The translations under genes were made by a program, and so were the position numbers. From Octopus vulgaris (Eukaryota), in assembly GCA_951406725.2 (NCBI GenBank), contig OX597827.1:63922001-63986000 (forward strand): a stretch of 64,000 bases of DNA. The letters are read 5' to 3'. Shown piece by piece: positions 9,496-63,325 of the stretch; the first letter of the stretch is position 1; each line of letters starts with the position of its first letter. Below the pieces are notes generated by a model, which saw nothing but the letters and a program-made list of their open reading frames with translations, searched no databases and was not told where the DNA came from.

Positions 9496-9638
9496 TCAGC
9501 AGGCATTGTTAATCACATTAAAAACTATTTGGTAACTGATAACAATAAACTAAAAGGTTTACCCAGAAACTCTAATCAATAAACTTTTAAAAGGTTTACC
9601 CAGAAACTCTAATCAATAAACTTTATAAGACTGACTTC
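9496..9638 (+). promoter_or_regulatory. Putative promoter of small-gene paralog copy 1
   Basis: TCAGCAGGC at 9496-9504 is shared with copies 2 and 3. A 37-bp tandem duplication (9551-9624) doubles TTACCCAGAA, which aligns to the GAS site TTCCCAGAA of copy 3. A partial IRF-type site AAAGTGAAAA lies upstream at 9402-9411. Confidence 0.5.
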
Positions 9639-9681
9639 CTCTGCTTCACAGAAAGAACTTTATAATACTCAAGAGATACAG
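9639..9681 (+). other. Putative non-coding exon 1 of paralog copy 1
   Basis: gacttcctctgcttc...aagagatacag|GTGAGT (donor 9682-9687), followed by ttgtttaattgt. Aligns with 27586-27650 and with 36239-36330, including the intron start. Confidence 0.6.
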
Positions 9682-10023
9682 GTGAGTTTGTTTAATTGTA
9701 TTCATTCTCATACATTTATATCAAACAAACCTACATGTTTAATTAATTCAATAAGACTTCTATAATTTATTAGCATAGTGTCTTTTCCATAAGCAATCTG
9801 TATATTTATCTTTTACTTGTTTCAATTATTTGATTGTGGCCATGGGACTCCATTTTAGGCCAGGCCAAGTACTTATTCTACAGGTTTCTTTTGGTAAACA
9901 GCTTGAAAACACGGGGTGCAAACATAATAACATCATTAGTCAAGCGGTGGCTGGGGACAAAATATCTCAAAGACACACATACACAGTTCATATATATATT
10001 TATATACACTAACACACACAGAC

Positions 10024-13945: not shown

Positions 13946-14027
13946 ATAATAAATATTAGGGAATAAATCCAAATTTACAGGGAAAAATCAGATTTAGGAT
14001 TGAATCCAATTTTATAGTAAAATATAA

Positions 14028-14238
14028 TATAATATTAATTAGAGACAAAACCACTATTATGCAAATCAAACAAAGAAAGACTTAATCCAATACATAAAAA
14101 AATTTATATAAATTATATATTAATTATATTTAATTTATATAAATTATATATTAATTATATTTAATTTATATAAATTTTTTTATGTATTGGATTAAGTCTT
14201 TCTTTGTTTGATTTGCATAATAGTGGTTTTGTCTCTAA

Positions 14239-14248
<10 letters not shown>
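14028..14248. repeat. Long near-perfect inverted repeat (~85-bp arms, AT-only spacer)
   Basis: ataatattaattagagacaaaaccactattatgcaaatcaaacaaagaaagacttaatccaatacat... is mirrored by ...atgtattggattaagtctttctttgtttgatttgcataatagtggttttgtctctaattaatattat. Confidence 0.9.
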
Positions 14249-15532: not shown

Positions 15533-17379
15533 GTGTATATGTATTATGTTATCAACATCGTTCAACGTCCACTTTCCATGCTGGCATGTGTTGGACAGTT
15601 TGACTAAGGAATGGCAAGCCAGGAGGCTGCACCAGGCTCCAATCTGATCTAGCAAGGTTTCTTCCTAACGCCAACCACTCTGAGAGTGTAGTGAGTGCTT
15701 TTTACAGTTGGGCAGCACTGGCCTCGACCACACTCAAATGGACCTTTTTACGGGAGCCAGTCAGGTAGCGCAATGACCATGTTCAAATGGTGTTTTTCAT
15801 ATGTGGTACTGGCATCAGCCATGTCAACAATTTCACTTGACTCAACAGGTCCTCTCAAGCACAGCATATTGCCCAAAGTTATGTGCGCCAGTTATGTGAT
15901 TATATATATAGCTTGTGAAGGCATATGGCTTAGCGGTTAGGGTGTTGTACTTACGATCGCAAGATCATGGGTTTGATTCCCAGACTAGACGATGCATTGT
16001 GGTCTTGAGCAAAACACTTCTTTTCACATTGCTCCTCAATAATTTCGACATCTGACATTTGGCACCCTTTGCACCTGTACAGGTAATGTCGATCTGATGG
16101 AGGGAGTGAGCTTATGTCTACGCAAACATTTGATCACTATTAACAAATCATCTGTGTGGTTGTTCAGTAAGAAATTGTCAAACCCTCATACTTCGTCTAA
16201 CGATAAGAGAGTCCATCATTTCAATTACTGATTCCTGATTCCTCTCTCAATTCTGCTTCACTTACTTTGGCTCTCTCTCTCTCTTTCTCTCCCCCTTTCT
16301 CTCTCTCTTCTGTCTGTTTCTCTCTCCCTCCCTCTCACTCTCTCTCTTTCTCTTTCTCTCAAACATTCTCCTCTTTTAGTAACCTCTTGTAGTTGCATTG
16401 CCATGCTTCATTCTTCTCGATACACACTCTAAGACGGCAAGCTGGCAAAGTTGTTATCACGCCAGGCAAAATGCTTAGCAGTATTTCACCCATTGCTATG
16501 TTCTGAGTTCAAATTCTGCTGAGGTCGACTTTACCTTTCATCCTTTCAGAGCCAATAAATTAAGTACCAGTTACACACTGGGGTCAATGTAAATGACTTG
16601 TCCCCACCCTCAAAATTTCAGGCCTTGTACCTATAGAAGAATGGATTATGTATACATACTTTTCACCAGTGTACCATATCCATACAGGCAGAAAATTTGC
16701 AATGCAAAACACTTCACATTTCTGATCTTTAAATTTCAAAACTTAGTAAAATACTTATTTTCAGCCTGTCTCCTTGTTAATTACACCTGCCATTTAGCTT
16801 CGCTTCTAGCTACCTAGTAATGTTCTTTATTTCTTGCCTTTTCTTCCATTCTTTCCAGGCCTGACTCTTTGCTTTTTTATGGTTCTGTTTACCATCTCAT
16901 TTCACAGATCTGGTCCATGGTTCAGTTGCTTTCTACATTATATGGTTCCATCTCCTCTTGTACTACTTAGAATTTATGACTGCCTAAGAAATACTTCAGC
17001 TTCCAATCTGTCCTTCTGGGTGGAGGGCAACTGCATGCTCACTCAACTTGCTGGAAATTGCAGCCTAGTGTCCCTCAAAAAAAAAAACCTTACTAGTTTA
17101 ACAAAGAAAAGATGATACATCTGATAATGTAATCAAACACAGACAAGGCAGGATGGTCAAACTTGGAACACCTCTGATTATAAGGTTAAACAAAACCAAC
17201 AAATAGTTGATTGAAAATATATTTGTGTGTCTGTTGGTCAGTTTCTCGATCTCTTTCTCTCTCTCACTCTCTTTCCCTCTACATATGCCAGTATAACTAG
17301 TTTCTTTTTTTGCTGTTGTTGTTGATTTTAATGTAATATCCCTATTTTTTTTCATCTAGAAATTTCCTAAAGCATTAAA

Positions 17380-17664
17380 ATGTCATGGTTTTTGATTGTG
17401 TGTGGAGTTTCAGCTGCTATAGCAATATATACTGTACTAGCTGCAAATCGAGAGCAACCGAGACGGTATGACCCACAGGAATTGTATGCGGTACGGGAGC
17501 CATATGAGCAAAGAACTTGTGTGACGTTTAATGAGAAAAATGTCAGTCGAGAGGCATATATCAATATATCCACTGCTTGTAGAACTGAAAGAAATGGAGT
17601 CATTCAAAGACGAAGGAATGTAAATGGTGCAAGTGGGTTAGTGGAGTATATTATTAACACTTGA
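17380..17664 (+). CDS. Small protein (~94 aa) with N-terminal signal peptide/anchor; coding exon of paralog copy 1
   Basis: Polypyrimidine acceptor tttttttttcatctAG (ending 17359) 20 nt before an ATG in aaaATG context; non-repetitive ORF MSWFLIVCGVSAAIAIYTVLAANREQ...; same layout as 40989-41303. The C-terminus may be spliced (possible donors at 17633 or 17637) to the exon at 20276. Confidence 0.6.
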   Translation: MSWFLIVCGVSAAIAIYTVLAANREQPRRYDPQELYAVREPYEQRTCVTFNEKNVSREAYINISTACRTERNGVIQRRRNVNGASGLVEYIINT

Positions 17665-17673
17665 TTATCTTTA

Positions 17674-18950
17674 AGCCAGTGAGCTGGCAAAATCGTTACT
17701 GTGCCAGGCCAAGCAAAATGCTTAGCAGTATTTCATCTGTCTCTATGTTCTCTGTTCAGATCCACCAAGGTTGACTTTGCCTTTTATCCTTTTGGGGTTG
17801 ATAAAATAAGCACCAGTTGAGTACTGGGGTTAATTAATATAATTGACTACCCCTTGCCACTATAGTAGAAAGAATCATCATCATCATCATCATCACATTC
17901 GCGACAACCACCATCACCATCATCATCATCATCATTAGCTGGGCAGGCAGAATTGCTAGCACACTGGAGGAAATGCTTAGCGGTATTCTATCCGTCGCTA
18001 CGTTCTGAGTTCAAATTCCGCTGAGATTGATTTTTGTCTTTCATCTTTTGGTGGTCGATAAATTAAATACCAGTGAAACACTGGGGTCGATGTAATCAAC
18101 TCATCCCCACCTTCCCCAAGCTACTCTTGTGGGAAAAATTTGAAATAATTATTATTAGGGCAGTGAACTTGCAGAATTGTTAGCACACTGGGCGAAATGC
18201 TTAGCAGTATTTCATCTGCCTTTATGTTCTGAGTTCAAATGACGTTGGGGGTCAACTTTGCCTTTCATTCTTTTGGGGTCAATAAATTAAGTACCAGTGA
18301 AACACTGGAGTTGATGTAATTGACTTGTCCTCTCCCCCAAAATTTCAGGCCTTATGCTTTATAGAAAGGATTGTTGTTATCATCATTATTATTATTATTA
18401 TTATTATTATTTATTAAGGCAGTAAGCAGGCAAAATCATTAGCATGCCAAGCAAAATGCTCAGCGGTATTTTGTCTGTCTTCGTGTTCTGGATTCAAATG
18501 CTGTCGGGGTCGACTTTACCTGACATCCTTTTGGGGTTGATAAAATAAGTACCAGTTATGCACTGGGGTCGATGTAATCGACTCATCCCCTCCCCCAAAA
18601 TTGCTGCCCTTGTGACAAAATTTGAAACCATCATTATTATTACAAAGGCATGAAGCTGGCAGAATTAAGACATCTGGCAAAATGCTTAATGGCATCTTAT
18701 CTGTCTTTACATTCAATGAAGGGCAGAGATCACATTCTGCCAAGGTGGACTTTACCTTTCATATTTTGGGGGCTTAATAAAATAAATGCCAGTTGAGTAC
18801 TGGGTTCAATCTAATTGACTATCTCCTCCCCCAAATTTCAGGCCTTGTGCTTTTAGTAGAAAGGATTATTATTATTATTGAGCACTGGGGCTGGTGCAAT
18901 TGACTTACCCTTCCGCCAAAATTGCTGGCCTTGTGCCAAAATTTGTGACC
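17674..18950 (+). mobile_element. Tandem cluster of about 6 co-oriented, diverged family B SINEs
   Basis: Repeated gagctggcagaa...ttctgagttcaaatt...gcctttcatccttttggggt...ataaa..aagtaccag units separated by (ATC)n/(ATT)n tails. Confidence 0.8.
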
Positions 18951-19048
18951 AATGTTAAAATTCATTTTCAATATGGGCACAAGAGCACTAATTTGCATCA
19001 TCATTTGGTGTTTTAAAGTCTTTGTGTTACCATCATCTTTTTATCTTT

Positions 19049-19452
19049 TATCTTTTACTTGTTTCAGTCATTAGACTGCGGCCATGCTGGGGCACTTCTT
19101 TGGAGAATTTTTTAAGCAAATGAATCAACTCCAGGACTTACTTTTTGTTTAACCTGGTGCTTGTCTTATCAGTCTCTTTTGCTGAACTGCTAGGTTTCAG
19201 GGACATAAACACACCAACACTGGTTGTCAAGCAGTGGTGAGAGATGAAAACTGACACAAACATGCTCACACACACACACGCATACACACACACACACACA
19301 CACACAGAGGCTTTTTCCAGTTTCCATTGACCGAATCCACTCACAAGGATTTTGTCAACCCAAGGCTATATTAGAAGATATTTACCCAAGGTGCCATGCA
19401 GTGGGATTGAACCTGGAACCATGTGGTTGGGAAGGAATCTTCCTACCTGTGC
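19049..19452 (-). mobile_element. tRNA-derived SINE family A (CORE-like), diverged
   Basis: Reverse complement of the family consensus seen at 49153-49586. Confidence 0.8.
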
Positions 19453-20275
19453 CTGAAAATCGAATACAAAAATGGACAAAATTTTTTTTTTGTTCTTTTA
19501 TTTTAATAGACATACGTCATTCAAATAGATATGTCGATAAAGTAACTCTTCCTCTTTACAAAGGTGGTATTCAACATAGTTTCCATCACAACCAATGCAA
19601 TTATGTCACCATTAAATCCAGCTCTTGAATCCACTTTGGAAAAAATTCAAATGTGCACTGTTGTATGAGGTGCTCATACAACAGGAACTTTGCTCCAAAG
19701 TTCCTGATTTGGAGTATAAGAAAATACAGGAGGATCAGTTAATTATGATTTTATTCAACATATTCCCCTCTCAGATTCACACACTTACTGCAGTAGTCAT
19801 ACCCCTTTTTCTAAGCCCTAAATAACTTGTAAGTTTGGGCCTCCAGCCAGATACTTTTCAGCACCCACTCATACCCATATCTTCACAGCCACTTTCGCCC
19901 TGCCTGTGTCATCAAATCATGGTCTCTGAAGACTGCCTTTCATTGAACTGAAGAGACAGAAGTCAAAGACAGCTCTATATTTAAGAGACGAGGAATTATG
20001 TACATTATTTACTTTTGACAGATATTTGTCCTCATCTTGTTTGTTGTTAACACAACATTTTGGCTAATATACCCTCCAGCCTTTATCAGGTGTCTTGGGG
20101 AAATTTTTAACCTGGGTTCTCATTCCTAAGGTATTTTTCGATGTTATTATTATTATTATTATTATTATTATGATTTTTTTGTTTGTATTTTGATATTCTT
20201 CTCAGTATAACAACCACCTTTAATTTTAAAAAGATTCAGTTTCACATCTCTTTCTCGTTTTTTTTTTTTTTACAG

Positions 20276-20436
20276 ATCCTCTGTCAGCATACGAGAGTAG
20301 ATCAAATCCATTATATCTACAACAGACTCTTTAAAATTTAGGACAGAAATGAAGAGCAAAAAAAAAAAAAACCTTCCTTAATTATCTTATAAACTAATTT
20401 TCTTTGTGAAATGTTCAGTTGATTGTAATACATTTG
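20276..20436 (+). other. Putative downstream (last) exon of paralog copy 1; 3' end undefined
   Basis: Strong acceptor (T)n-tacAG ending at 20275. The unique sequence is paralogous to 34351-34520 (ttaaaatttagg.cagaaat...tgaaatgttcagttga.tgtaata). Confidence 0.5.
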
Positions 20437-28096: not shown

Positions 28097-28138
28097 TTTG
28101 TATATATATATATATATATATACAAAAATTTTTAAATA

Positions 28139-28310
28139 TAAGCATAATTATAATTAGGGTTCAGCAAAATTGCTTCATCACATACCAAAATAGAAATAGC
28201 AGTTAACTACGGGAGTTATCTTATGGTAGTCAAATAGTATTTATCTGTTATTTCTAAATTTCAGTATGTGGTGAAGCAATTTTGCTGAACCCTAATTATA
28301 ATTATGCTTA
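28139..28310. repeat. Inverted repeat (~47-bp arms)
   Basis: aagcataattataattagggttcagcaaaattgcttca.cacatac / gtatgtg.tgaagcaattttgctgaaccctaattataattatgctt. Confidence 0.85.
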
Positions 28311-28417
28311 TAATTATAGAATTTATGTATGTATAAGTTTACCGATAATAGTTCTTTTAACATAACAAACTACTTGGTAGAATTATTAATTATAAATTGA
28401 TTAATTAATTTTACCCT

Positions 28418-28493
<76 letters not shown>

Positions 28494-29132
28494 TCCCATA
28501 TTTAACTCACTTCTTTTATTCAATTATTTCTCAAATTTTTTTTTTAGTCCTGCACAGTAAAACCACAATAATTAAGATTTAGTATCACATCTTATTCATA
28601 ATCAACCTATGACTTCATTTGCTTCCACCAGACCCAGTTATGCAGAGTAAGTTTCTTTATTTGTATATATTCTCCAATATTTTATTATCAAAATTTAACA
28701 CGCAATTAACTAATTCATTGGCAGAGGTAAAGAACATGTACACCACTTGTTTTCAGCGTAACAAAAACCCTAACCGTAATCCTAACCCTAAACCTAAACC
28801 CTAACCACCGGGTGTATGTATTCTTTACTTTCGTCAATCCATTTACTCAATCGTATTCAGGTTTTTTTCTTAGCCCTGCACAGTAAGACTCCTATAATTA
28901 AGTTTTAATATAATGTCTTTTACATTATCAATCTGTGTACATGCTGGCAGAGTTTCAGATCAGGATACCTACATAAGTTAGATTTTCGGGGTTTAATTAA
29001 TTTGTTCTTGATCATGTTCTCGGAAATTATGTGAGAAATTTACACTATCTTGCAAGTCTTTGGGGTGCAGTGGGGTACTCACTTATTTTTCACTAATAAT
29101 TACTTCAAAAACTAGACAGTAATAAATCAACT

Positions 29133-29726: not shown

Positions 29727-30315
29727 GTAAATCGTAATGGCGACTAAGAAGAAGAAGAAGAAGAAGAAAAAGAAGAAGACGAATGGCGGAAAAGATGGAA
29801 ATTGAAGGATTGAAGGATTAAAGGGTTAAATTTCGTAGAGAAAAGATAGGAAAAACGAAGCAGTTATTGTATGAGTACAGACGTTTAACAATAGTAACGA
29901 ATGAGGTACGAAAGATAATGGGATAAAATGTTTTTGCAACTTGCTGCGAAGTATGAAAGCCGGAAGCCGCTGTTGGAGAAGAAAGGAAGTCTAAAAATTG
30001 GGAACCGTAAATCGTAATGGCGACTAAGAAGAAGAAGAAGAAGAAGAAAAGAAGAAGACGAATGGCGGAAAAGATGGAATTGAAGGATTGAAGGATTAAA
30101 GGGTTAAATTTCGTAGAGAAAAAGATAGGAAAAACGAAGCAGTTATTGTATGAGTACAGACGTTTAACAATAGTAACGAATGAGGTACGAAAGATAATGG
30201 GATAAAATGTTTTTGAGGAAAAACGAAGCAGTTATTGTATGAGTACAGACGTTTAACAATAGTAACGAATGAGGTACGAAAGATAATGGGATAAAATGTT
30301 TTTGCAACTTGCTGC
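29727..30315 (+). repeat. Isolated patch (~2 monomers, one rearranged) of the 277-bp satellite
   Basis: Near-identical to monomers at 55-64 kb; internal partial duplication around 30215. Confidence 0.9.
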
Positions 30316-34060: not shown

Positions 34061-34350
34061 TTCTGTATGAGAGCAGTGCTGGTTCGTGGCTTGTGGAGTC
34101 TCCATGCTTAACATTTCATCTTGTCTCATCATTATACCATGTCTAATTTTTATCTTGTTATTTCTTTTTGTTCTTCCATTCACACATTCAACCCTGTTGT
34201 AGACCCCTAACTGTTCTTGTTTGTCATGTATTGTCCCTCTATGTGAGCTTTAGTGGCTAATACAGAATTAAATTTTAAAAGCTTCAATTTTTCTTCTCTC
34301 TCTCACTCTCTTTTCTCTGTTTTCTTTCTTTATTCTTTTTCTTTTTACAA

Positions 34351-34520
34351 ATCCAATAGCAACTAACAACAGCATATCATATCTTTACCATACCATTGTA
34401 TCAACAACAGCAGAAGTTTTAAAATTTAGGTCAGAAATAAAGAGAAAAATAAAATCCTTCCTTGATTGCCTTACAAACGACTTTCCTTTATGAAATGTTC
34501 AGTTGACTGTAATATATTTG
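34351..34520 (+). pseudogene. Paralog of the 20276 exon (copy 2) with dead acceptor
   Basis: Aligns to 20221-20436, including the upstream aattttaaaa.g.ttca and pyrimidine tract, but the acceptor reads tacAA instead of tacAG. Confidence 0.55.
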
Positions 34521-35377: not shown

Positions 35378-36114
35378 CATGTTTAATATTTTTATAATGA
35401 AAAAAGAAAAATCAATAAGTTAAACATAATCTGTGTATTTTCTTTGTTTCTGTTAAATTTAAATTTCAGATTTCTCACACAATGATTTAAAATCTATCTA
35501 GTCGTGATTCTGGTAATAGGGCCCTAGACTGAGTGCTGTCAGCTGTTGATGTGTGTGGAATTACTTCTTAGCCAGTATTGTCCCAAGGTCTATTCTCATC
35601 CAGAGTATAGCACCTACGGGGGTTATAGATCTAGATTAAATAGCACGTAAGGGCATCCAGCCGTAGAAACATTGCTAGATCAGACTGGGCCTGGTGCAGC
35701 CTTCTGGCTTCCCAGACCCCAGTTGAACCGTCCAATCCATGCTAGCATGGAAAGCGAACGCTAAACGATGATGATGATGTAACCACCCAAGCAATAGTTA
35801 CATTGAAATCATGGGATGCAGCATGGTGGATGTTGAGTATTCCAGGAGATGAGCTTGTTGAGTCAATGGTGAATATCACTAGATGCTGAGCGGATGGACA
35901 GAAAACTGTCAATCGTGTTCGTAAAATTTCAATTTCTAACGGCCTTGGCCTTCAAACAATTGCGATAACATAATGAAATTTCAGTTGCCGAACTAGTTCT
36001 CAACTGCACAGATATTACAGCTAGCGACAGACTAACTTGAAAACTCTCTCTCTCAATCTCCCCCCCCCCCGTCTCTCTCTCTCTCTCTTTCTCTGACACA
36101 TAGGCTCACAGCTA

Positions 36115-36247
36115 TCAGCAGGCACGCCGAGCAACCATGAAAAAAAATCTTATTTCCATGAATAGCGTGTGTTTCCCAGAAATTTGCAGAAAGTGAAAGT
36201 ACTTCATTATCGCTTATTATAAAATCTCTTTATACAAAACTTCATTC
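36115..36247 (+). promoter_or_regulatory. Putative GAS-GAS-ISRE-TATA-Inr promoter of paralog copy 3
   Basis: TCAGCAGGC 36115-36123; TTCCATGAA 36154-36162; TTCCCAGAA 36173-36181; GAAAGTGAAAGT 36189-36200; TATAAAA 36218-36224; TCATTC (TCAKTY Inr) 36242-36247. Confidence 0.65.
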
Positions 36248-36306
36248 GCTTCGGAAAGGTCCAGTCATACATATAGCAGCAACTGTGTATCACAAAAGAT
36301 ATCGAA
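36244..36306 (+). other. Putative non-coding exon 1 of paralog copy 3
   Basis: Runs from the Inr to a consensus donor GTAAGT at 36307-36312; the intron start ctgtttaattgt matches copy 1 (ttgtttaattgt). Confidence 0.6.
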
Positions 36307-37423
36307 GTAAGTCTGTTTAATTGTTAATATTATCACATATTTATATGAAACTTTAACGCACAATTGATTATTTTATTCAACTCTATTCATAAGGCACCCT
36401 AAAATCAAGTCTTAATATCACATCATTAAATGATCTATGTACCTATGTTTATGTTAACCCTGCTGTATTTCTTTAAACTTGTAGGGTTGATTAGAGGGAG
36501 CTTTCACTTGTTTCTAACAGCTCTAGCGACTGCTAATTGGCAATCTTTCGTCTCTAGTAGACCTTTCCGTCGATTTCCGTAAAAAAATTTTTTTTTACAT
36601 ATGGGCTTGCGAGAACTTTTGAAGTAATGAGAGCGAAAGAGACTAAGAGAAAGCGATTGTATGACGAGGGAAGTTCTTTTGAAGTTACCGTGCATGTGAA
36701 GCATTGATGTAGATGTGTGTGTGTGCGTGTGTGTTTGATGGGGTGTGGGAGACAGACAGTATGTTGTGTAAGTGAAGTGCTTCTGTTAGTGTGTGTGAAG
36801 AGACAGAGTAATGTGTATAGGGGATCTGGCGATGTTTCGTTATATATACATGTTTGTGTGTGTTTCCCCTATACCGCTTGATAACAGGTGTTGGTGTGTT
36901 TATGTACGCGTAACTTAGTAAAAGAAAAAAAGAAAATTAAGCACCGAGGCCGATTCGACTAAAAATTCTTCCAGACGGTGCTCCAGAATGGCTGCTGTCT
37001 CATGACTGAAACAAATAAAAGAGAAAAAAAATAAAGATGTATGTAGGTACGGCAGACGAAATATATTGAAAGAAAGAAAACAACCAACACCCTTCCTTCC
37101 CAATTCTACGGCATTGGCCTTCAAGCAGGCTATCCACATGCTAGAAATAACAGCCATCTACAAACACACGATGTTTTGAGTTGGTCAAACGATTCTCTTT
37201 AATTTCACTTTGTCACAGTATTTCTTTGCTATTTTTACTTTTTTTTTTTTCAAAAGAGTTTACTGTTGTTTCTGCACTCATACTTTTTATAACTTTCAAC
37301 TCCCCCCCCCCCCAAAAAAAAAGAAAGAAATGTACACATTCACATGAATTACTCTGTCATATTACTGCGGAAAATTACTCAGAATTATGTTATCGCAGTT
37401 GTTTGAAATTTGGCTGTTATTTT

Positions 37424-38130
37424 AGTATTATTTGATACTTTCACCCGCATGATTTTCACTAAGAAAAAAAAAAAAAAATTCCCAGGATCAACCGTAGAGG
37501 ATCATGGAAAAAAATATGTGTAACATGTGTAAGGCATCGTATATTGAAGGAATATGACGAAAAAAAAGCGCGCTGACAAACGGGGGGGGGGGCTCGGAAA
37601 ACTGCCTACGATTTAAAGAAAAATTTACCATCAATTTTCACCATTTTAAACGCATTTCACACACATAGCCCAATGTCATAATTCAAAACTAACGCAGCGA
37701 AAATTTTGAAAAGTTCCCCCAGTTCTGAAAAAATCGATAAATTCGACATGGGGTCGCGAATCAGAAACACAATGGTGAAAATTGATGGTAAATTTTTCTT
37801 TAAATCGTAGGCAATTTTCCGAGCCCCCTCCCCCCCGTTTGTCAGCACGCTTTTTTTCGTCATATTCCTTCAATATACGATGCCTTACACCTGTTACACA
37901 TATTTTTTTCCATTTTTGCCTCTACGGTTGATCCTGGGAATTTCCCGAGCCCCCCACCCCCCACCCCCCGTTTGTCAGCGCGCTTTTTTCCCGTCTTATT
38001 CCGTCAATATACGATGCCTTACAACTGTTACACATTTTCGTTTCCATTTTTCCCACCGGGTGCGGATCTAGATATTAACCAAACAATTTAATCGAGGTCA
38101 AGGTACTTGATTCCAAGCAAAAAATCCGAG

Positions 38131-38190
<60 letters not shown>

Positions 38191-38232
38191 TCTTAGTGAA
38201 AATCGTGCGGGTGAAAGTATCAAATAATACTA
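37424..38232. repeat. Nested foldback (outer ~45-bp and inner ~165-bp inverted arms), partly Helitron-derived
   Basis: tagtattatttgatactttcacccgca.gattttcactaagaa is inverted at ~38190-38232; ~37480-37645 is inverted at ~37771-37941. The interior shares ctacgatttaaa.aaaaatttaccatca with the Helitron at 40625. Confidence 0.85.
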
Positions 38233-39130
38233 TCTTTTCAAATAAACTTTTCGGTGGACGTGACGTCAGCGATAGGCAGCCCACATAAATTAAAATTCTC
38301 CGCTTTGACGGGGTTGGGATTGGGGTTTAAGATTTTTTTTCTTTAAGGAGGTGTCCTTGGGAATGATCTGGAGCATCCTTTTAACAAAAAAAAAATGTTT
38401 TCGAAAAATGATTTTTAAAACTCTGCCCGGCCCTCATCATCTTCTCTCTGGACCGATTTTGGTCGATTTTGTGGGCACTATGTACTTAAAAACTATAAGA
38501 GAAGCCTTTTCATTTAAAAAAAAAAAAGCAAATATTTTCAGACGAAAAGGTGTGATTAAAGAGAGATTTGGCTGTTGTTTCTAGTATATCCCATGACCAC
38601 TTCCTCATTTCTTTCTCACCTATTGGTGTCTTTTTCAGTATTTTCTTCCCATTAATAGCATAAATTCATTAATGCTATTAAATTATTTTTGACAATTTAT
38701 GATTTTAATCAAGTCTCCCATGGGGCATGCTAGAAACAACAGCCAAATCTCCCTTAAATCACACTTATCGTCTGAAAATACTTATGTTTTTTGTTGTTGT
38801 TTTTACCGGAAATACTTCTACAGGTTTTAAGTGCGTAGTTTCCAAAAAATTCATCGTGAATAGTGCCCACAAAATAAAAAAAAAACTGTTCCGTGAGGGG
38901 AAGATGGAGTTTTTAAAAAATCATTTTTCGAAAAAGTGGATCTTTTCCTTTTGAACAGCGCTTTTCAACACAATTTCTAATTAACTAAACACTTTGAAAC
39001 TTCGTATACTGGTAGAATGTGTCAAAAGAAAACATTTTTTTCTCTTGGCTTTCTTGGGAAAATTGTAATTTGTTTGTTTAATGTAGTTTAATTTTTCGAA
39101 TTTTAACCAATCCTATGCCCTCTATTTAGC

Positions 39131-39477
39131 TAAAATCATTTGCTACGTCTAAAACAGACAACATCCTGTCACTAACCCTAAATTTTAGCCTTTCGTTTTT
39201 TTTTGTTTTGTTTTCTTAATTGTTAAATTAATTTAAGGATAACAATTAAGAAAAAAAAAAAAACGAAAGGCTAAAACGAAAGCAATGGAAAATAATTTTA
39301 ATTTAACAATTAAGAAAAAAAAAACGAAAGCAAAAACTCAAAACAAAACGAATAATTTTAGACACGCGTAACAATTAAGAAAAAAAAAAAACGAAAGGCT
39401 AAAATTTAGGGTGAGGGTTAGAGTTAGGGTTAGTGACAGGATGTTGTCTCAGTTTTAGACGCAGCAAATGATTTTAT
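39131..39477. repeat. Inverted repeat with telomere-like (TTAGGG) variants
   Basis: taaaatcatttgct.cgtctaaaac..agacaacatcctgtcactaaccctaa is mirrored by ttagggttagtgacaggatgttgtct..gttttagacg.agcaaatgatttta. Confidence 0.8.
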
Positions 39478-40159
39478 ATATAACATATGGATATATACGT
39501 GCTGAAAAACTCTTATATATTTCTGATCTAAAGTATAAAATTGATATGAATTTAAACAACATGGTCCAATTAATCTGCAAAGAAAGGAAAAAAACCCATA
39601 AAAATTTATACCAAAGTACCTGCAAAGTGAAATAGCTAGTTAAAAAATCTTTATAAGGGATGAAAGTAGTAACTATAATGGGAAATGATGTTTGTCACCA
39701 TGGCTGTTCCCTAGGAACTGACATTACTGCTATTTTTAACCACAGGAGGATACCTATTCCAGCTGGTTAATCATATATATATGTATATATATATATATAT
39801 ATATATGTATGGTTTCAACTTCTTTGTGGTCATCCGCAGTGGTGGATACTCATCTAGAGATAGCAGTAGCTCATTCCAGCTCAAAATAAATAGAAACCAA
39901 GTGACACACAGTCACTGATCTTACAACAAGCAGATTAGTTAGTTAGAATATCTCTATAAGAGACGAAAGCAATAACTATAGTGTATATGTGTGTGTGAAT
40001 GATGAAGGACACTCTAGATAATGTATTCTCTGATATTCACAAAGACTGGATGGTCATATATAGAATGTCTTCATCACTGTTTTACTCAACAGTAATGCTC
40101 ATTTGATATCTCAGTTTTTACATTTTAGTTTCTTGATCATTTTGTCTACCTATGTACCT

Positions 40160-40610
40160 GTGAGGAGGTGCTGAAATGTTCCTGACGTTGGGTAAAAGAA
40201 AATACAGGTGGATCAGTTAATTATGATTTTACTCAACATATTCACCTCTCAGATTCACAAACGTTTGCCAGCGGTCATCTAGTTTTTCTACGCCCTGTAA
40301 AAGAACTCGGAAGTTTGGGCCTCCGACCAGTACCTTCATGATACCCTTAAAGCCAGGAACATTTCATCTCTCCCTTGTATACCCACACACACACACATAC
40401 ATGAGGGGGTACTAAAATTTCCTGGCTTTGGGTAAAAGAAAATACAATTAATTATGATTTTATTCAACATATTCCCCTCTCAGATTCGCACACTTATTAC
40501 AGCAGTCCTTTAGTTTTTCTAAGCCCTGTAAAAAGAACTCAGAATGTTGGCCTTCCAACCAGGTCTTTCGCGATACCCTTAAAGCCAGGAACCTTTCAGC
40601 ACCCCATCAT
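40160..40610. mobile_element. Two tandem ~210-bp mariner-like MITEs (further copies at ~19690, ~22650 and 43141-43350)
   Basis: TIR-like atgagggggt.ct.aaa..ttcctggcttt / aaagccaggaac.tttcagcaccccatcat. Confidence 0.7.
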
Positions 40611-40624
40611 ATATAACTTGATTA

Positions 40625-40930
40625 TCTTTATATATAAAATTGAAGTTGTGTGTGTGAGACTCTGTCTCCTCCAATTTAGATTCCTAACTACTCCCACATT
40701 TTGCGATGCAGTTTAACCAAAAGCAGGTATCTTATAGTCGTCATTCATATCAAGCCCTTCTGGGTATTAGCGCGCGTCTACTATGAGTCTACGATTTAAA
40801 AAAAATTTACCATCATTTTTCCGCATTTTTAATGATTTTTGTTCGGGTTATACAAGGGAAGTAACTCTCTAAAAATGCTTATATAGTTATTTCCCTTACA
40901 AACCCAAGCAACGCCAAGCGATACTGCTAG
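40625..40930 (+). mobile_element. Short non-autonomous Helitron
   Basis: A|TC 5' end (tctttatatataaaa) and CTAG|T 3' end preceded by a degenerate hairpin; inserted ~38 nt upstream of the copy 3 acceptor. Confidence 0.7.
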
Positions 40931-40988
40931 TATTATATATAATAACTTTATCCAATTTTTTCATCCAGGTATTTTCTGATTGTTTAAG

Positions 40989-41303
40989 ATGGGAAGCGAC
41001 AGACGGAATGTTTCACCTCTGATGGAAGGTATTCAACTAGGTGGTGCTGTTGCTGCAGCAGCTGGTGTGATTTATGCGCTTTATACATACTTTTCTTCAA
41101 AGGAGTCAAATACCACTTACAAGGAAACCAATTATACGTGCCATACACATACAACAGAGAATGCATATGGAAGAGTGACAAACAGACAAGAAAATAACCA
41201 AACCAAAGAGACGCACACCACTGAAAGGGTTAGGGAATTTAGTAACAATCTGCAATTAGAAAACCGCAACAGTCTCAGCCGTAAAAATAAACATAGAAAA
41301 TGA
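40989..41303 (+). CDS. Small protein (104 aa, or 93 aa from the ATG at 41022) with N-terminal hydrophobic anchor; coding exon of paralog copy 3
   Basis: Acceptor ttttttcatccAG (ending 40968) 20 nt before ATG, the same spacing and near-identical acceptor as copy 1. The ORF has IQLGGAVAAAAGVIYALYTYF followed by a hydrophilic T/N/E/R-rich tail. Confidence 0.62.
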   Translation: MGSDRRNVSPLMEGIQLGGAVAAAAGVIYALYTYFSSKESNTTYKETNYTCHTHTTENAYGRVTNRQENNQTKETHTTERVREFSNNLQLENRNSLSRKNKHRK

Positions 41304-50657: not shown

Positions 50658-51272
50658 ATTCACTGAGGCAGACGACAGATTCTGCATGACAGTCTACCAC
50701 GCTTGTCATAGCTGCCTCCCACTGCACCTCCTTCTTCAGAGGTCAAAGGTCAATTAGTTTTAGACATCGGTGAAAAATAAATAAATAAATAATATAAAAT
50801 AAAAACTTTGTTTCACGAGCGTATTCACTAAAGCAGACGATAGATTCTGCATGACAGCTACCACGCTTGTCATAGCTGCCTCCCACTGCACCTCCTTCTT
50901 CAGAGGTCAAAGGTCAATTAGTTTTAGACATCGGTGAAAAATAAATAAATAAATAATATAAAATAAAAACTTTGTTTCACGAGCGTATTCACTAAAGCAG
51001 ACGATAGATTCTGCATGACAGCTACCACGCTTGTCATAGCTGCCTCCCACTGCACCTCCTTCTTCAGAGGTCAAAGGTCAATTAGTTTTAGACATCGGTG
51101 AAAAATAAATAAATAAATAATATAAAATAAAAACTTTGTTTCACGAGCGTATTCACTAAAGCAGACGACAGATTCTGCATGACAGCTACCACCCTTGTCA
51201 TAGCTGCCTCCCACTGCACCTCCTTCTTCAAAGGTCAAAAGTCAATTAGTTTTAGACAGCGGTGAAAAAATA
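50658..51272 (+). repeat. 164-bp tandem repeat, ~3.7 copies
   Basis: gcagacga at 50668, 50833, 50997 and 51161; each unit has an atgacagc/gcttgtcat hairpin and AGGTCAAAGGTCA (one mismatch in the last unit). Confidence 0.95.
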
Positions 51273-51329
51273 AAGGAGTGGCTGTGTGGTAAGTAGCTTC
51301 TTACCATACAGACGTGTTGTTTTTTGCTC

Positions 51330-52072: not shown

Positions 52073-53261
52073 ATGGCAAAGGCAAAGAATTTTACTGTGT
52101 GGGAGTTAACACCTCCCAAAAAATATTTACACGAACTCGAGGAAAGAACCGTGGTGCTGAGAACATTTTCAAAGTCACTCGACACCATAATGGTTTTTCC
52201 GAGAGATACCATTGTGAACGAGCTGGCAGATTATATGCCAGCCGTTAAACATATTCAACGGGGAGTCAAATACGCAACGGTATGGTTGCTATTTGACTCC
52301 GCCAACAACTTGCAAATTTGCAAGCCAGCCCATTGAGGGCGATGAAATTCTGTTTCTCCCCAGTTACAAGGGGGAAAAATTGTTACGTTTGTGGGTCTGT
52401 GGCCTGCCGCCCGGCTTTGAGCCCGAGTGGGTGGAAGATTCCATCCGCCGGGGTCTGAGTGGTGGTAGCGCCAAGATCCTAAACGTGAAAATTCAGCCTG
52501 CGGCTAACTGGGAAGGGTCAAAGGCCACTTTGACTCTGTGGACCCAGTCGGCCAAGAGTCTGGTTTTGCCAGACTTCTTGAAGATGGCCGGATCCAAGTA
52601 TCCGGTGATGCTTGAGGGACGCGCCCCCAAGTGTCACCTGTGTTCGGAAACCGGCCACATCAAGAAGAGCTGCCCCAGGAACCAAGGTAGGATCCTGGAG
52701 GAGCTAATATCAGAGCCTCTCCCTGCCCCACCAGTGGAGGGAGAGAAACAAAGTGAGGAGGGGGAAAAATCCTCCTCCAAAAGAAAGAGAAAGGTGGGGA
52801 GCAATGGCGACCCACCAAAGAAACCGGAGGCTTCGGAAGAAAAAGAGGACCCGGTGCGTACAGCACTGGAGCCTCAACCTCCCGAGGCCCGGCGTAAAAA
52901 GAAGAAAAAGAGGAACGGGACGCCACCAGCGGATAGTAATTCGCGGATGGCGACTCCCAAGTGTTCTCCGGCAACGGTGATGCCGGAGAAATTTTATGTG
53001 GTCCTCTTTTACAAAGGAGGAATAGTACAGAACGAAATAGGTAAGATGAGGAAGAGAAACCAATGGGAGGGACTTCGGTCCTGCATGGAGTATCCAGAGT
53101 GGCCCTCGCAGCTTGCTGCGGAGGTCCTACTCGAAAATGATATGTGCAGGATCGAGAATTCTTTCCCGGAGGATCTCTTGCAAGTCTTACCTGTGTGCGG
53201 AAACCTGACGACGGACGATTGCGTCACCAAGGCAAGAGAGTTCGTCGGTCGGGTGACGTGA
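52073..53261 (+). pseudogene. Gag/ORF1-like nucleic-acid-binding protein of a non-LTR (L1/Tx1-like) element; single frameshift near 52315
   Basis: The ATG 52073 frame (MAKAKNF...WLLFDSANNLQ) continues in the +1 frame (FASQPI...LWVCGLPP...VMLEGRAPKCHLCSETGHIKKSCP). It has a CX2CX4HX4C zinc knuckle preceded by EGRAP and a basic low-complexity tail; GC content is higher than the flanks. Confidence 0.8.
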
Positions 53262-53544: not shown

Positions 53545-54304
53545 GCAAGAAGAAGAAGAAAAGAAGAAGACGAATGGCGGAAAAGATGGAAATTAAGGAT
53601 TGAAGGATTAAAGGGTTAAATTTCGTAGAGAAAAGATAGGAAAAACATTTTGTGGACAGTTATTGTATGAGTACAGACGTTTAACAATAGTAACGAATGA
53701 GGTACGAAAGATAATGGGATAAAATGTTTTTGCAACTTGCTGCGAATATGAAAGTCGACGGAAGCCGCTGTTGGAGAAGAAAGGAAGTCTAAAAATTGGG
53801 AACCGTAAATCGTAATGGCGAGCTAAGAAGAAGAAGAAGAAGAAGAAAAGAAGAATGACGAATGGCGGAAAAGATGGAAATTAAGGATTGAAGGATTAAG
53901 GGGTTAAATTTCGTAGAGAAAAGATAGCTTGAAAACCGAAGCAGTTATTGTATGAGTACAGACGTTTAACAATAGTAACGAATGAGGTACGAAAGATAAT
54001 GGGATAAAATGTTTTTGCAACTTGCTGCGAATATGAAAGCCGGAAGCCGCTGTTGGAGAAATAGAAAGGAAGTCTAAAAATTGGGAACCGTAAATCGTAA
54101 TGGCGACTAAGAAGAAGAAGAAGAAGAAGAAAAAAGAAGAAGACGAATGGCGGAAAAGATGGAAATTAAGGATTGAAGGATTGAAGGATTAAAGGGTTAA
54201 ATTTCACCCTAGAGAAAAAAGATAGCTTGAAAAACGAAGCAGTTATTGTATGAGTACAGACGTTTAACAATAGTAACGAATGAGGTACGGCAAAGAGATA
54301 ATGG
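53545..54304 (+). repeat. Indel-rich patch of ~2.7 satellite monomers
   Basis: Same monomer as the main array but with many indels; merges into a SINE A tail (54305-54427). Confidence 0.85.
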
Positions 54305-55024: not shown

Positions 55025-56942
55025 AAAATGTTTTTGCGAATGGCGGAAAAGATGGAAATTAAGGATTGAAGGATTAAAGGGTTAAATTTCGTAGAGAAAA
55101 GATAGGAAAAACGAAGCAGTTATTGTATGAGTACAGACGTTTAACAATAGTAACGAATGAGGTACGAAAGATAATGGGATAAAATGTTTTTGCAACTTGC
55201 TGCGAGTATGAAAGCCGGAAGCCGCTGTTGGAGAAGAAAGGAAGTCTAAAAATTGGGAACCGTAAATCGTAATGGCGACTAAGAAGAAGAAGAAGAAGAA
55301 GAAAAGAAGAAGACGAATGGCGGAAAAGATGGAAATTAAGGATTGAAGGATTAAAGGGTTAAATTTCGTAGAGAAAAGATAGGAAAAACGAAGCAGTTAT
55401 TGTATGAGTACAGACGTTTAACAATAGTAACGAATGAGGTACGAAAGATAATGGGATAAAATGTTTTTGCAACTTGCTGCGAGTATGAAAGCCGGAAGCC
55501 GCTGTTGGAGAAGAAAGGAAGTCTAAAAATTGGGAACCGTAAATCGTAATGGCGACTAAGAAGAAGAAGAAGAAGAAGAAAAGAAGAAGACGAATGGCGG
55601 AAAAGATGGAAATTGAAGGATTGAAGGATTAAAGGGTTAAATTTCGTAGAGAAAAGATAGGAAAAACGAAGCAGTTATTGTATGAGTACAGACGTTTAAC
55701 AATAGTAACGAATGAGGTACGAAAGATAATGGGATAAAATGTTTTTGCAACTTGCTGCGAATATGAAAGCCGGAAGCCGCTGTTGGAGAAGAAAGGAAGT
55801 CTAAAAATTGGGAACCGTAAATCGTAATGGCGACTAAGAAGAAGAAGAAGAAGAAAAGAAGAAGCCGAATGGCGGAAAAGATGGAAATTAAGGATTGAAG
55901 GATTAAAGGGTTAAATTTCGTAGAGAAAAGATAGGAAAAACGAAGCAGTTATTGTATGAGTACAGACGTTTAACAATAGTAACGAATGAGGTACGAAAGA
56001 TAATGGGATAAAATGTTTTTGCAACTTGCTGCGAATATGAAAGCCGGAAGCCGCTGTTGGAGAAGAAAGGAAGTCTAAAAATTGGGAACCGTAAATCGTA
56101 ATGGCGACTAAGAAGAAGAAGAAGAAGAAGAAGAAAAGAAGAAGACGAATGGCGGAAAAGATGGAAATTAAGGATTGAAGGATTAAAGGGTTAAATTTCG
56201 TAGAGAAAAGATAGGAAAAACGAAGCAGTTATTGTATGAGTACAGACGTTTAACAATAGTAACGAATGAGGTACGAAAGATAATGGGATAAAATGTTTTT
56301 GCAACTTGCTGCGAGTATGAAAGCCGGAAGCCGCTGTTGGAGAAGAAAGGAAGTCTAAAAATTGGGAACCGTAAATCGTAATGGCGACTAAGAAGAAGAA
56401 GAAGAAGAAGAAAAGAAGAAGACGAATGGCGGAAAAGATGGAATTGAAGGATTGAAGGATTAAAGGGTTAAATTTCGTAGAGAAAAGATAGGAAAAACGA
56501 AGCAGTTATTGTATGAGTACAGACGTTTAACAATAGTAACGAATGAGGTACGAAAGATAATGGGATAAAATGTTTTTGCAACTTGCTGCGAATATGAAAG
56601 CCGGAAGCCGCTGTTGGAGAAGAAAGGAAGTCTAAAAATTGGGAACCGTAAATCGTAATGGCGACTAAGAAGAAGAAGAAGAAGAAGAAAAGAAGAAGAC
56701 GAATGGCGGAAAAGATGGAAATTAAGGATTGAAGGATTAAAGGGTTAAATTTCGTAGAGAAAAGATAGGAAAAACGAAGCAGTTATTGTATGAGTACAGA
56801 CGTTTAACAATAGTAACGAATGAGGTACGAAAGATAATGGGATAAAATGTTTTTGCAACTTGCTGCGAATATGAAAGCCGGAAGCCGCTGTTGGAGAAGA
56901 AAGGAAGTCTAAAAATTGGGAACCGTAAATCGTAATGGCGAC

Positions 56943-56973
<31 letters not shown>

Positions 56974-57217
56974 ACGAATGGCGGAAAAGATGGAAATTAA
57001 GGATTGAAGGATTAAAGGGTTAAATTTCGTAGAGAAAAGATAGGAAAAACGAAGCAGTTATTGTATGAGTACAGACGTTTAACAATAGTAACGAATGAGG
57101 TACGAAAGATAATGGGATAAAATGTTTTTGCAACTTGCTGCGAATATGAAAGCCGGAAGCCGCTGTTGGAGAAGAAAGGAAGTCTAAAAATTGGGAACCG
57201 TAAATCGTAATGGCGAC

Positions 57218-57248
<31 letters not shown>

Positions 57249-57775
57249 AAGACGAATGGCGGAAAAGATGGAAATTAAGGATTGAAGGATTAAAGGGTTA
57301 AATTTCGTAGAGAAAAGATAGGAAAAACGAAGCAGTTATTGTATGAGTACAGACGTTTAACAATAGTAACGAATGAGGTACGAAAGATAATGGGATAAAA
57401 TGTTTTTGCAACTTGCTGCGAATATGAAAGCCGGAAGCCGCTGTTGGAGAAGAAAGGAAGTCTAAAAATTGGGAACCGTAAATCGTAATGGCGACTAAGA
57501 AGAAGAAGAAGAAGAAGAAGAAAAGAAGAAGACGAATGGCGGAAAAGATGGAAATTAAGGATTGAAGGATTAAAGGGTTAAATTTCGTAGAGAAAAGATA
57601 GGAAAAACGAAGCAGTTATTGTATGAGTACAGACGTTTAACAATAGTAACGAATGAGGTACGAAAGATAATGGGATAAAATGTTTTTGCAACTTGCTGCG
57701 AATATGAAAGCCGGAAGCCGCTGTTGGAGAAGAAAGGAAGTCTAAAAATTGGGAACCGTAAATCGTAATGGCGAC

Positions 57776-57806
<31 letters not shown>

Positions 57807-58050
57807 ACGAATGGCGGAAAAGATGGAAATTAAGGATTGAAGGATTAAAGGGTTAAATTTCGTAGAGAAAAGATAGGAAAAACGAAGCAGTTATTGTATG
57901 AGTACAGACGTTTAACAATAGTAACGAATGAGGTACGAAAGATAATGGGATAAAATGTTTTTGCAACTTGCTGCGAATATGAAAGCCGGAAGCCGCTGTT
58001 GGAGAAGAAAGGAAGTCTAAAAATTGGGAACCGTAAATCGTAATGGCGAC

Positions 58051-58081
<31 letters not shown>

Positions 58082-58325
58082 ACGAATGGCGGAAAAGATG
58101 GAAATTAAGGATTGAAGGATTAAAGGGTTAAATTTCGTAGAGAAAAGATAGGAAAAACGAAGCAGTTATTGTATGAGTACAGACGTTTAACAATAGTAAC
58201 GAATGAGGTACGAAAGATAATGGGATAAAATGTTTTTGCAACTTGCTGCGAATATGAAAGCCGGAAGCCGCTGTTGGAGAAGAAAGGAAGTCTAAAAATT
58301 GGGAACCGTAAATCGTAATGGCGAC

Positions 58326-58356
<31 letters not shown>

Positions 58357-58600
58357 ACGAATGGCGGAAAAGATGGAAATTAAGGATTGAAGGATTAAAG
58401 GGTTAAATTTCGTAGAGAAAAGATAGGAAAAACGAAGCAGTTATTGTATGAGTACAGACGTTTAACAATAGTAACGAATGAGGTACGAAAGATAATGGGA
58501 TAAAATGTTTTTGCAACTTGCTGCGAATATGAAAGCCGGAAGCCGCTGTTGGAGAAGAAAGGAAGTCTAAAAATTGGGAACCGTAAATCGTAATGGCGAC

Positions 58601-58631
<31 letters not shown>

Positions 58632-59437
58632 AAGACGAATGGCGGAAAAGATGGAAATTAAGGATTGAAGGATTAAAGGGTTAAATTTCGTAGAGAAAAG
58701 ATAGGAAAAACGAAGCAGTTATTGTATGAGTACAGACGTTTAACAATAGTAACGAATGAGGTACGAAAGATAATGGGATAAAATGTTTTTGCAACTTGCT
58801 GCGAATATGAAAGCCGGAAGCCGCTGTTGGAGAAGAAAGGAAGTCTAAAAATTGGGAACCGTAAATCGTAATGGCGACTAAGAAGAAAAAGAAGAAGAAG
58901 AAAAGAAGAAGACGAATGGCGGAAAAGATGGAAATTGAGGATTGAAGGATTAAAGGGTTAAAGGGTTAAATTTCGTAGAGAAAAGATAGGAAAAACGAAG
59001 CAGTTATTGTATGAGTACAGACGTTTAACAATAGTAACGAATGAGGTACGAAAGATAATGGGATAAAATGTTTTTGCAACTTGCTGCGAATATGAAAGCC
59101 GGAAGCCGCTGTTGGAGAAGAAAGGAAGTCTAAAAATTGGGAACCGTAAATCGTAATGGCGACTAAGAAGAAGAAGAAGAAGAAAAGAAGAAGACGAATG
59201 GCGGAAAAGATGGAAATTAAGGATTGAAGGATTAAAGGGTTAAATTTCGTAGAGAAAAGATAGGAAAAACGAAGCAGTTATTGTATGAGTACAGACGTTT
59301 AACAATAGTAACGAATGAGGTACGAAAGATAATGGGATAAAAAGTTTTTGCAACTTGCTGCGAATATGAAAGCCGGAAGCCGCTGTTGGAGAAGAAAGGA
59401 AGTCTAAAAATTGGGAACCGTAAATCGTAATGGCGAC

Positions 59438-59468
<31 letters not shown>

Positions 59469-59715
59469 AAGACGAATGGCGGAAAAGATGGAAATTAAGG
59501 ATTGAAGGATTAAAGGGTTAAATTTCGTAGAGAAAAGATAGGAAAAACGAAGCAGTTATTGTATGAGTACAGACGTTTAACAATAGTAACGAATGAGGTA
59601 CGAAAGATAATGGGATAAAATGTTTTTGCAACTTGCTGCGAATATGAAAGCCGGAAGCCGCTGTTGGAGAAGAAAGGAAGTCTAAAAATTGGGAACCGTA
59701 AATCGTAATGGCGAC

Positions 59716-59746
<31 letters not shown>

Positions 59747-60535
59747 ACGAATGGCGGAAAAGATGGAAATTAAGGATTGAAGGATTAAAGGGTTAAATTT
59801 CGTAGAGAAAAGATAGGAAAAACGAAGCAGTTATTGTATGAGTACAGACGTTTAACAATAGTAACGAATGAGGTACGAAAGATAATGGGATAAAATGTTT
59901 TTGCAACTTGCTGCGAATATGAAAGCCGGAAGCCGCTGTTGGAGAAGAAAGGAAGTCTAAAAATTGGGAACCGTAAATCGTAATGGCGACTAAGAAGAAG
60001 AAGAAGAAGAAAAGAAGAAGACGAATGGCGGAAAAGATGGAAATTAAGGATTGAAGGATTAAAGGGTTAAATTTCGTAGAGAAAAGATAGGAAAAACGAA
60101 GCAGTTATTGTATGAGTACAGACGTTTAACAATAGTAACGAATGAGGTACGAAAGATAATGGGATAAAATGTTTTTGCAACTTGCTGCGAATATGAAAGC
60201 CGGAAGCCGCTGTTGGAGAAGAAAGGAAGTCTAAAAATTGGGAACCGTAAATCGTAATGGCGACTAAGAAGAAGAAGAAGAAGAAGAAGAAGACGAATGG
60301 CGGAAAAGATGGAAATTAAGGATTGAAGGATTAAAGGGTTAAATTTCGTAGAGAAAGATAGGAAAAACGAAGCAGTTATTGTATGAGTACAGACGTTTAA
60401 CAATAGTAACGAATGAGGTACGAAAGATAATGGGATAAAATGTTTTTGCAACTTGCTGCGAATATGAAAGCCGGAAGCCGCTGTTGGAGAAGAAAGGAAG
60501 TCTAAAAATTGGGAACCGTAAATCGTAATGGCGAC

Positions 60536-60566
<31 letters not shown>

Positions 60567-63294: not shown

Positions 63295-63325
<31 letters not shown>

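Follow-up and report, generated by a model that had tools for sequence, protein, structure and literature searches.

The plus-strand segment 36150-36310 of the 64,000-nucleotide stretch of Octopus vulgaris DNA analysed here (the window) is very probably a real promoter and first exon, and we somewhat favor the more specific reading, drawn from its sequence and from that of its relatives, that it is a genuine STAT and IRF composite promoter for the signal-induced transcription of a gene that we call B. Gene B is the best-preserved of three tandem Octopus-specific genes for small one-helix proteins (A, B, and C). A sequence-only reading had proposed a functional inducible promoter at this site. 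The promoter and first-exon part of that proposal now draws support from the annotated gene downstream, from homologous first exons, and from a paralogue that carries an IRF site together with a GAS, a predicted STAT site; the inducible part stays a prediction.

Six motifs found by motif search follow one another on the plus strand within 159 bp, each at the position and in the order that the sequence-only reading had given. Two predicted STAT sites of the form TTC-N3-GAA come first, GAS1 (TTCCATGAA, 36154..36162) and GAS2 (TTCCCAGAA, 36173..36181), separated by a 10-bp spacer, with GAS2 embedded in an extended palindrome (TTTCCCAGAAA, 36172-36182). After a gap of 7 bp stands a 12-mer of the IRF-E/ISRE type (GAAAGTGAAAGT, 36189..36200), followed by a TATA box (TATAAAA, 36218..36224), an initiator (Inr) string (TCATTC, at 36242) and a splice-donor string (GTAAGT, at 36307). 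The 12-mer had been taken for an ISRE. A site of that general type is indeed present, but it is an IRF-E of the IRF1/2 type that overlaps the Blimp-1 consensus (PMC2938208, PMC10201418, both in part) and implies no ISGF3; we know of no interferon, STAT2 or IRF9 (ISGF3) in octopus, and the gene B promoter is not classed as an ISGF3 or interferon target. Two sources, in the parts covered, report that molluscs lack interferon homologues (PMC8218723, PMC7819612). Both STAT sites fit the consensus TTC-N2-4-GAA (PMC7819612, in part), the ISRE/IRF-E component of a composite promoter is supplied at 36189-36200, and the 7-bp gap lies within the range of 0 to <415 bp seen in the human composite set (PMC10287828, in part).

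The 9-mers of GAS1 and GAS2 and the 12-mer each have a single exact copy in the 64 kb, and the 12-mer is the only strict IRF-E match in the window; the TATA, initiator and donor strings recur often (35, 82 and 34 matches, respectively, on both strands of the 64-kb window). No tandem repeat overlaps 36115-36312 (TRF), the module has no Rfam match at E<=0.1, and self-BLAST of 36090-36500 returns paralogous first-exon and intron segments alone, with no dispersed repeat; on these null results, a repeat or RNA origin of the module is rejected. The DNA here had been called non-repetitive, which holds for tandem repeats, dispersed repeats and Rfam families, but the region is not unique, being one of several paralogous copies. 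An internal duplication of ~38 bp has furthermore left an initiator-like segment upstream of the initiator itself (36202..36215, plus strand), with the same pattern at 36202 and 36240.

Chance expectation was gauged by simulating 4000 windows of 48 kb (192 Mb) with an order-4 Markov model built on 48,070 bp of the window, with simple repeats masked, the satellite beyond 54,500 dropped, and the module left out of training; the motif definitions behind these counts were picked after the site had been seen. Single parts are ordinary, the strict IRF-E alone occurring in 877 of 4000 simulated windows. The pattern GAAANNGAAA[CG][CT] is joined by one GAS within 50 bp in 311/4000, by two in 11/4000, and by two plus a downstream TATA in 1/4000 (once per 192 Mb), and the strict IRF-E is joined by two GAS in 2/4000 and by two GAS and a TATA in 0/4000. 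Smaller runs with orders 1, 3 and 5 (0/150 each) agree with order 4. In a look-elsewhere control on the real sequence, every spaced palindrome was combined with every spaced direct repeat. Modules of two plus one plus TATA arise from 3 of the 15,320 abundance-matched pairs, namely the true pair itself and, judged by sequence, two versions in which the 12-mer is read in a shifted register, all three marking one locus; among all 64,512 pairs there are 10 such successes, 3 of them identified by sequence. The cluster exceeds what chance would give in the composition-matched simulation, and it is the only locus found with the matched decoy pairs. Scaled to an Octopus vulgaris genome that we take to be ~2.8 Gb, the mid-stringency rate of 0.005 per Mb nonetheless yields ~15 chance modules, and therefore the cluster alone is not proof and the gene context carries the argument. 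The pattern GAAANNGAAA[CG][CT] has three matches in 1-54500: two precede homologous initiators by 55-60 bp and have a GAS at a distance of 7 bp, and the third, at 4271, has a GAS and a TATA nearby (4271-4331) in unrelated DNA.

Transcription of gene B would begin in the initiator region (36240..36252, plus strand), which has homologous segments in the paralogues, with A36244 or G36248 as the candidate start. A non-coding, ATG-free exon 1 of ~63 nt (36244..36306), recognized by its homology to C1, would be followed by an intron (36307..40968) running from the GTAAGT donor to an acceptor ending in TTTTCATCCAG, and then by exon 2 (40969..41303), all on the plus strand, with the coding sequence of a 104-aa orphan protein (P0001) at 40989-41303. 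The GTAAGT at 36307 is the single donor scoring at least 6 in 36244-36500 and most plausibly splices over 4.7 kb to this exon; a strict polypyrimidine pattern chose 40483 rather than the proposed acceptor. In both A and B, the ATG stands 20 nt past the acceptor. NCBI/UniRef contain the exact protein sequence of B, with an annotation in NCBI, and its identity to O. bimaculoides A0A0L8FQ67 is 69% over the full 104 aa. Hydropathy indicates one modest hydrophobic helix (residues 17-35), and the tail is rich in Ser/Thr/Asn, with N-glycosylation sequons. Neither AATAAA nor ATTAAA occurs within 500 bp past the stop.

The start had been placed near 36244. The initiator region is kept in the paralogues, but the TATA box lies only at -26 from that base, and 36248 fits better. 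In mouse, a TATA box works best at -31/-30 and, as a rule, not at all downstream of -28 (PMC1779604, in part); measured against a mouse range of -34 to -28 from a PyPu start, A36244 (-26) falls outside and G36248 (-30) inside. The C-G step at 36247-36248 is matched by a pyrimidine-G at the same spot in A, C1 and C2, and the C-A step at A36244 is lost in A. Because of the -30 spacing and the pyrimidine-G kept in all copies, G36248 is slightly favored over A36244 as the likely start, with the proviso that the mouse spacing rule may not hold in octopus.

The paralogues provide the comparison on which much of the argument turns. The promoter and exon 1 of A (9551..9760, plus strand) comprise an exact 37-bp duplication carrying a non-canonical TTACCCAGAA at 9559 and 9596, a canonical GAS at 9645 (+7), within the exon, and a GTGAGT donor at 9682; no ISRE-type match occurs in 9551..9760. 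The coding exons of A (17360..20436, plus strand; 17360-17636, and from 20276) encode the O. vulgaris protein CAI9733202.1 of 93 aa, so that A is an annotated spliced gene without an IRF site. Paralogue C is represented by two plus-strand copies of the first exon. C1 (27522..27650) has a promoter with GAAAATGAAACT at 27531 (-60), TTCCTAGAA at 27550 (-41) and an initiator at 27587, and has no consensus donor of its own; C2 (28612..28937) repeats exon 1, the donor (28647) and the start of the intron in tandem but has no upstream promoter of its own, the duplication beginning right at the initiator. A last-exon remnant of C (34323..34520, plus strand) matches exon 3 of A at 73%, with its acceptor AG reading AA. 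Coding exon 2 of C was not found between 28940 and 34320, and a coding-exon candidate near 29500 was not significant (70/300 and 54/300). Paralogue C is probably a pseudogene.

Exon 1, donor and intron start of B align to A (9630-9800), C1 (27565-27670) and C2 (28610-28760), with 0/500 shuffles in each case; exon 1 by itself aligns to C1 with a score of 44 (0/500 shuffles), and the donor with the start of the intron is homologous to A 9671-9751 and C2 28646-28719. Initiator segments homologous to that of B are found at 9635, 27587 and 28613, and 12/14 bases of the initiator region are identical between B and C1. Between A and B, the similarity from acceptor to ATG is reached in 1/500 shuffles and that of the whole exon 2 with its acceptor in 0/300. 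By eye, the 3′ part of B plausibly matches exon 3 of A or C, but neither comparison is significant (480/1000 and 470/1000), and this homology is rejected. At or near its start, each promoter also carries a short tandem duplication of its own (9551-9624, 37 bp; 36198-36252, ~38 bp; 28507-28937, ~330 bp), which suggests repeated remodelling of this promoter family.

Farther upstream, the similarity between B and C1 is modest (17/1000 global, 62/500 local) and that between B and A not significant (582/1000); a proximal similarity of A to C1 was likewise not significant, as 3454 of 54,200 positions score equally well. The IRF block of B has its best match in C1 27522-27543 (1 of 54,250 positions), and the IRF-type site stands at -60 in C1 vs -55 in B. 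The GAAA cores of the two sites are identical at 8/8 bases, compared with 45/83 of the other upstream bases (about 0.007 at 54% background identity, a value that depends on the alignment), and both C1 changes in the 12-mer fall at positions where the consensus is tolerant. A GAS lies 7 bp downstream of the IRF site in C1 and 7 bp upstream in B. Canonical GAS are present in -100..+50 of both A and C1, as against 3.1% of random anchors, and C2, which is without an upstream region of its own, has none in this interval. Motifs related to GAS2, as defined by a pattern drawn post hoc from the A and C1 sites, stand upstream of the first exons of A (9558, 9595) and C1 (27549) and nowhere else in 1-54500. 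GAS1 is not kept in C1 (6/9 identical, with the TTC half lost), nor are the TATA box and the collinear position of GAS2, and neither TATA nor GAS1 is conserved in the paralogues. The paralogues have a common ancestor and do not count as independent tests, and the short duplications make the alignment ambiguous; since C looks dead, its conservation may reflect ancestry rather than selection.

Trans-acting factors of the appropriate families appear to be available. Table S1 of the O. vulgaris haemocyte transcriptome contains IRF2-like, IRF3-like, STAT5A-like and SOCS transcripts by the authors' BLAST annotation (PMC4199593, in part), of which the IRF2-like and STAT5A-like ones would supply a cognate IRF and STAT. 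On inspection by eye, the R-C-x-x-N-S recognition helix, which contacts GAAA (PMC7819612, in part), is retained in the IRF2-like transcript; JAK was not found by name in the covered part of the PMC4199593 supplement. In other molluscs, poly(I:C) raises the expression of a STAT5B-like gene in Amphioctopus fangsiao (PMC11252417, in part), and the Aplysia set comprises one JAK, one STAT and seven IRFs (PMC9334734, in part); ISRE binding is reported for oyster, scallop and shrimp IRFs (PMC13524488, PMC4602278, PMC8218723, each in part).

Such a promoter might operate as follows. In the segment 36150-36310, gene B would have its RNA polymerase II proximal promoter and its non-coding first exon, the promoter working like a vertebrate composite GAS and IRF-E promoter. 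Upon cytokine-type JAK signalling, dimers of an octopus STAT (STAT5-like) would bind the tandem GAS pair, possibly cooperating as a tetramer given the 10-bp spacer, and an IRF1/2-like factor would bind the adjacent 12-mer. Together, the two would drive TATA-directed initiation at 36244-36248. By vertebrate analogy, STAT may account for the early phase and IRF for the sustained phase of an infection- or stress-induced response, the site of which would probably be the haemocytes.

A composite of GAS and ISRE is textbook architecture in vertebrate interferon-stimulated genes. Described cases include APOL6, UBE2L6, TRIM69, PARP14, STAT2 and IRF9, and the order and spacing of the two elements vary freely among human composite promoters (PMC10287828, in part). 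The octopus sites resemble these in that a GAS and an ISRE-type site lie only a few bp from each other in a probable proximal promoter, and do so in either order (GAS-ISRE in B, ISRE-GAS in C1, each with the 7-bp gap), but differ in that the target is an orphan gene and that the sites are known from sequence. An IRF1 oligo from the PLAAT4 promoter contains the exact 12-mer (PMC10201418, in part); in contrast to the IRF-E as described (PMC10201418, PMC7819612, both in part), the site in B has only two GAAA half-sites, lacks the AA that the extended form carries at its 5′ end, and is flanked by tandem GAS. A tandem-GAS probe with a 10-bp spacer is bound by STAT1 tetramers (PMC4284922, in part), and B likewise has two TTC-N3-GAA at this spacing, although its GAS1 is weaker and unconserved in the paralogues, and an octopus tetramer is putative. 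Closer in phylogeny are shrimp Vago4 (PMC4602278, in part) and the oyster CgIFNLP promoter (PMC13524488, in part), where a protostome IRF binds an ISRE-type site of a native gene; the covered parts of these sources describe an ISRE only, with no tandem-GAS composite, and the targets are cytokines in non-cephalopod hosts.

Among the other explanations, the one with the most weight, though clearly a minority view for us, accepts the promoter and its sites and denies that they form an inducible immune switch: IRF1/2 or STAT alone might act constitutively or in development (e.g., in the haemocyte lineage), or Blimp-1/PRDM1 might repress through the 12-mer and BCL6 through the GAS-like sites. BCL6 sites overlap GAS, which counts in its favor, whereas STAT sites are normally signal-dependent, which counts against it. 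The case for Blimp-1 is that its in vivo consensus and the BTN3A3 and SP110 probes hold the same AAGTGAAAGT core (PMC2938208, in part), the 12-mer of B sharing the AAAGTGAAAGT core of these overlapping BLIMP1/IRF sites. The paralogous C1 site, however, keeps both GAAA half-sites and loses the GTGAAAG core needed by Blimp-1, which points to a constraint of the IRF type; moreover, PRDM1 is not among the two 'PR domain' rows in the covered part of the PMC4199593 supplement. A constitutive or developmental role would agree with IRF1 also driving basal expression (PMC7819612, in part) and with oyster IRF1 regulating haemocyte proliferation (PMC13524488, in part). It would also agree with a search by four exact primers for genes A and B, which gave 0 matches in the 538 infection-responsive transcripts and the covered part of Table S1 (PMC4199593); exact matching is sensitive to polymorphism, and this null counts only weakly against a response to the coccidian and has no bearing on viral mimics.

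Two further alternatives seem unlikely to us. The first exon and core promoter could be real and the GAS- and IRF-like matches mere by-products of micro-duplications in AT-rich DNA, with nothing relevant bound. Although all three promoters have short duplications, the arrangement differs from one paralogue to the next (A being without an IRF site), and the ~15 mid-stringency chance modules expected from the assumed genome size would allow for an accident, such an accident must have landed directly upstream of a conserved first exon, and it leaves aside the selective 8/8 conservation of the IRF core in C1 and the recurrence of GAS at both other promoters. Less probable again is an active start elsewhere, with the segment serving as an internal or alternative 5′ UTR exon or being a decayed promoter. 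Here the intact ORF of gene B, conserved in another species, the initiator and donor conserved in the paralogues, the C duplication that starts right at the initiator, and the optimal TATA spacing of G36248 have to be set against a TATA box at -26 from the textbook Inr, a gene B splice that we infer from sequence, and the decay of the neighbouring paralogue C. The signal-induced STAT and IRF composite stays the preferred reading.

The encoded proteins stand apart from known families. The ORFs of A and B have no Pfam match above the curated cut-off, and no Pfam domain or usable ESM Atlas match connects them to the small ISG protein families, which we take to be represented by IFITM/CD225, IFI6/IFI27 and tetherin; Atlas models have a pLDDT of about 0.5. 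Relatives outside Octopus were found neither in Pfam, nor in a search of 5.8 billion sequences, nor in a profile search of 1.84 billion representatives, nor in the ESM Atlas. The profile search returned the O. bimaculoides protein and one 4201-aa protein with 12 short stretches, and for longer forms of A the count in the 5.8-billion search was 0 of 65 candidates. The A and B proteins have no detectable similarity to each other (BLASTP E=5.5; 179/500 shuffles as good for the CDS), which leaves either a fast-evolving coding portion or a homology that is only partial.

No description of a native cephalopod GAS and IRF composite promoter was found in the open-access literature, much mollusc immunology being published in subscription journals, and the covered parts of PMC11934927, PMC5869526 and PMC7269103 hold nothing on native mollusc GAS and ISRE promoters. 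With IRF-ISRE binding already known in molluscs and shrimp, the finding is probably one of a known architecture in a new lineage, ahead of an orphan, fast-evolving gene cluster. Molluscan IRF and STAT work relies mostly on mammalian ISRE and GAS reporters. With a full composite native to a cephalopod, one could test directly whether STAT-IRF co-regulation arose before interferon, and the native promoter would be a ready-made reporter for octopus immune signalling. It would also offer an initial clue to the function (immune or stress inducible) of two proteins so far annotated just as hypothetical, in an aquaculture species whose antiviral defence is poorly known. A bolder idea, which we regard as doubtful, is that cephalopods run an interferon-free, ISG-like regulon in the vertebrate GAS and IRF-E grammar, including tandem-GAS cooperativity, with octopus-specific effectors. 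If true, the promoter logic would be older than interferon and ISGF3, the octopus-specific anti-pathogen effectors would include this fast-evolving tandem family of orphan proteins, whether membrane-anchored or secreted, and the module could seed retrieval of the whole regulon from cephalopod genomes.

Several other elements of the window deserve mention. A loose ISRE core (GAAACTGAAAGA) occurs in seven copies of a SINE-like dispersed repeat (15475, 21110, 27939, 35226, 42837, 48824, 49295), and loose ISRE counts are therefore inflated; such a repeat could supply IRF sites genome-wide. The third ISRE-type match, on the minus strand at 4271, belongs to a second promoter-like cluster (3868-4460) that is unrelated to the gene family, carries TATAAATA near 4313, a GAS at 4323 and CCAAT-type boxes, and is possibly a mobile-element or other promoter; beside it lie local duplications (3871-3950 ~ 4102-4181; 3947-4035 ~ 5095-5183). 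A 161-codon frame at 7272-7757 resembles the C-terminal region of a reverse transcriptase from an RTE-type retrotransposon. A 347-codon open frame at 52218-53261 has the look of the ORF1/gag-like region of a retroelement; its zinc-knuckle match is weak (PF00098, E=0.0036, below cut-off). The window ends in a 277-bp satellite (55037-64000; 32.4 copies, 98% matches), fragments of which occur at 29727-30304 and 53547-54289, and a 164-bp tandem repeat lies at 50658-51274 (3.8 copies, 97% matches). Large imperfect palindromes of ~220-290 bp (28115-28335 and 13950-14240), beside (TA)n tracts, are MITE-like.
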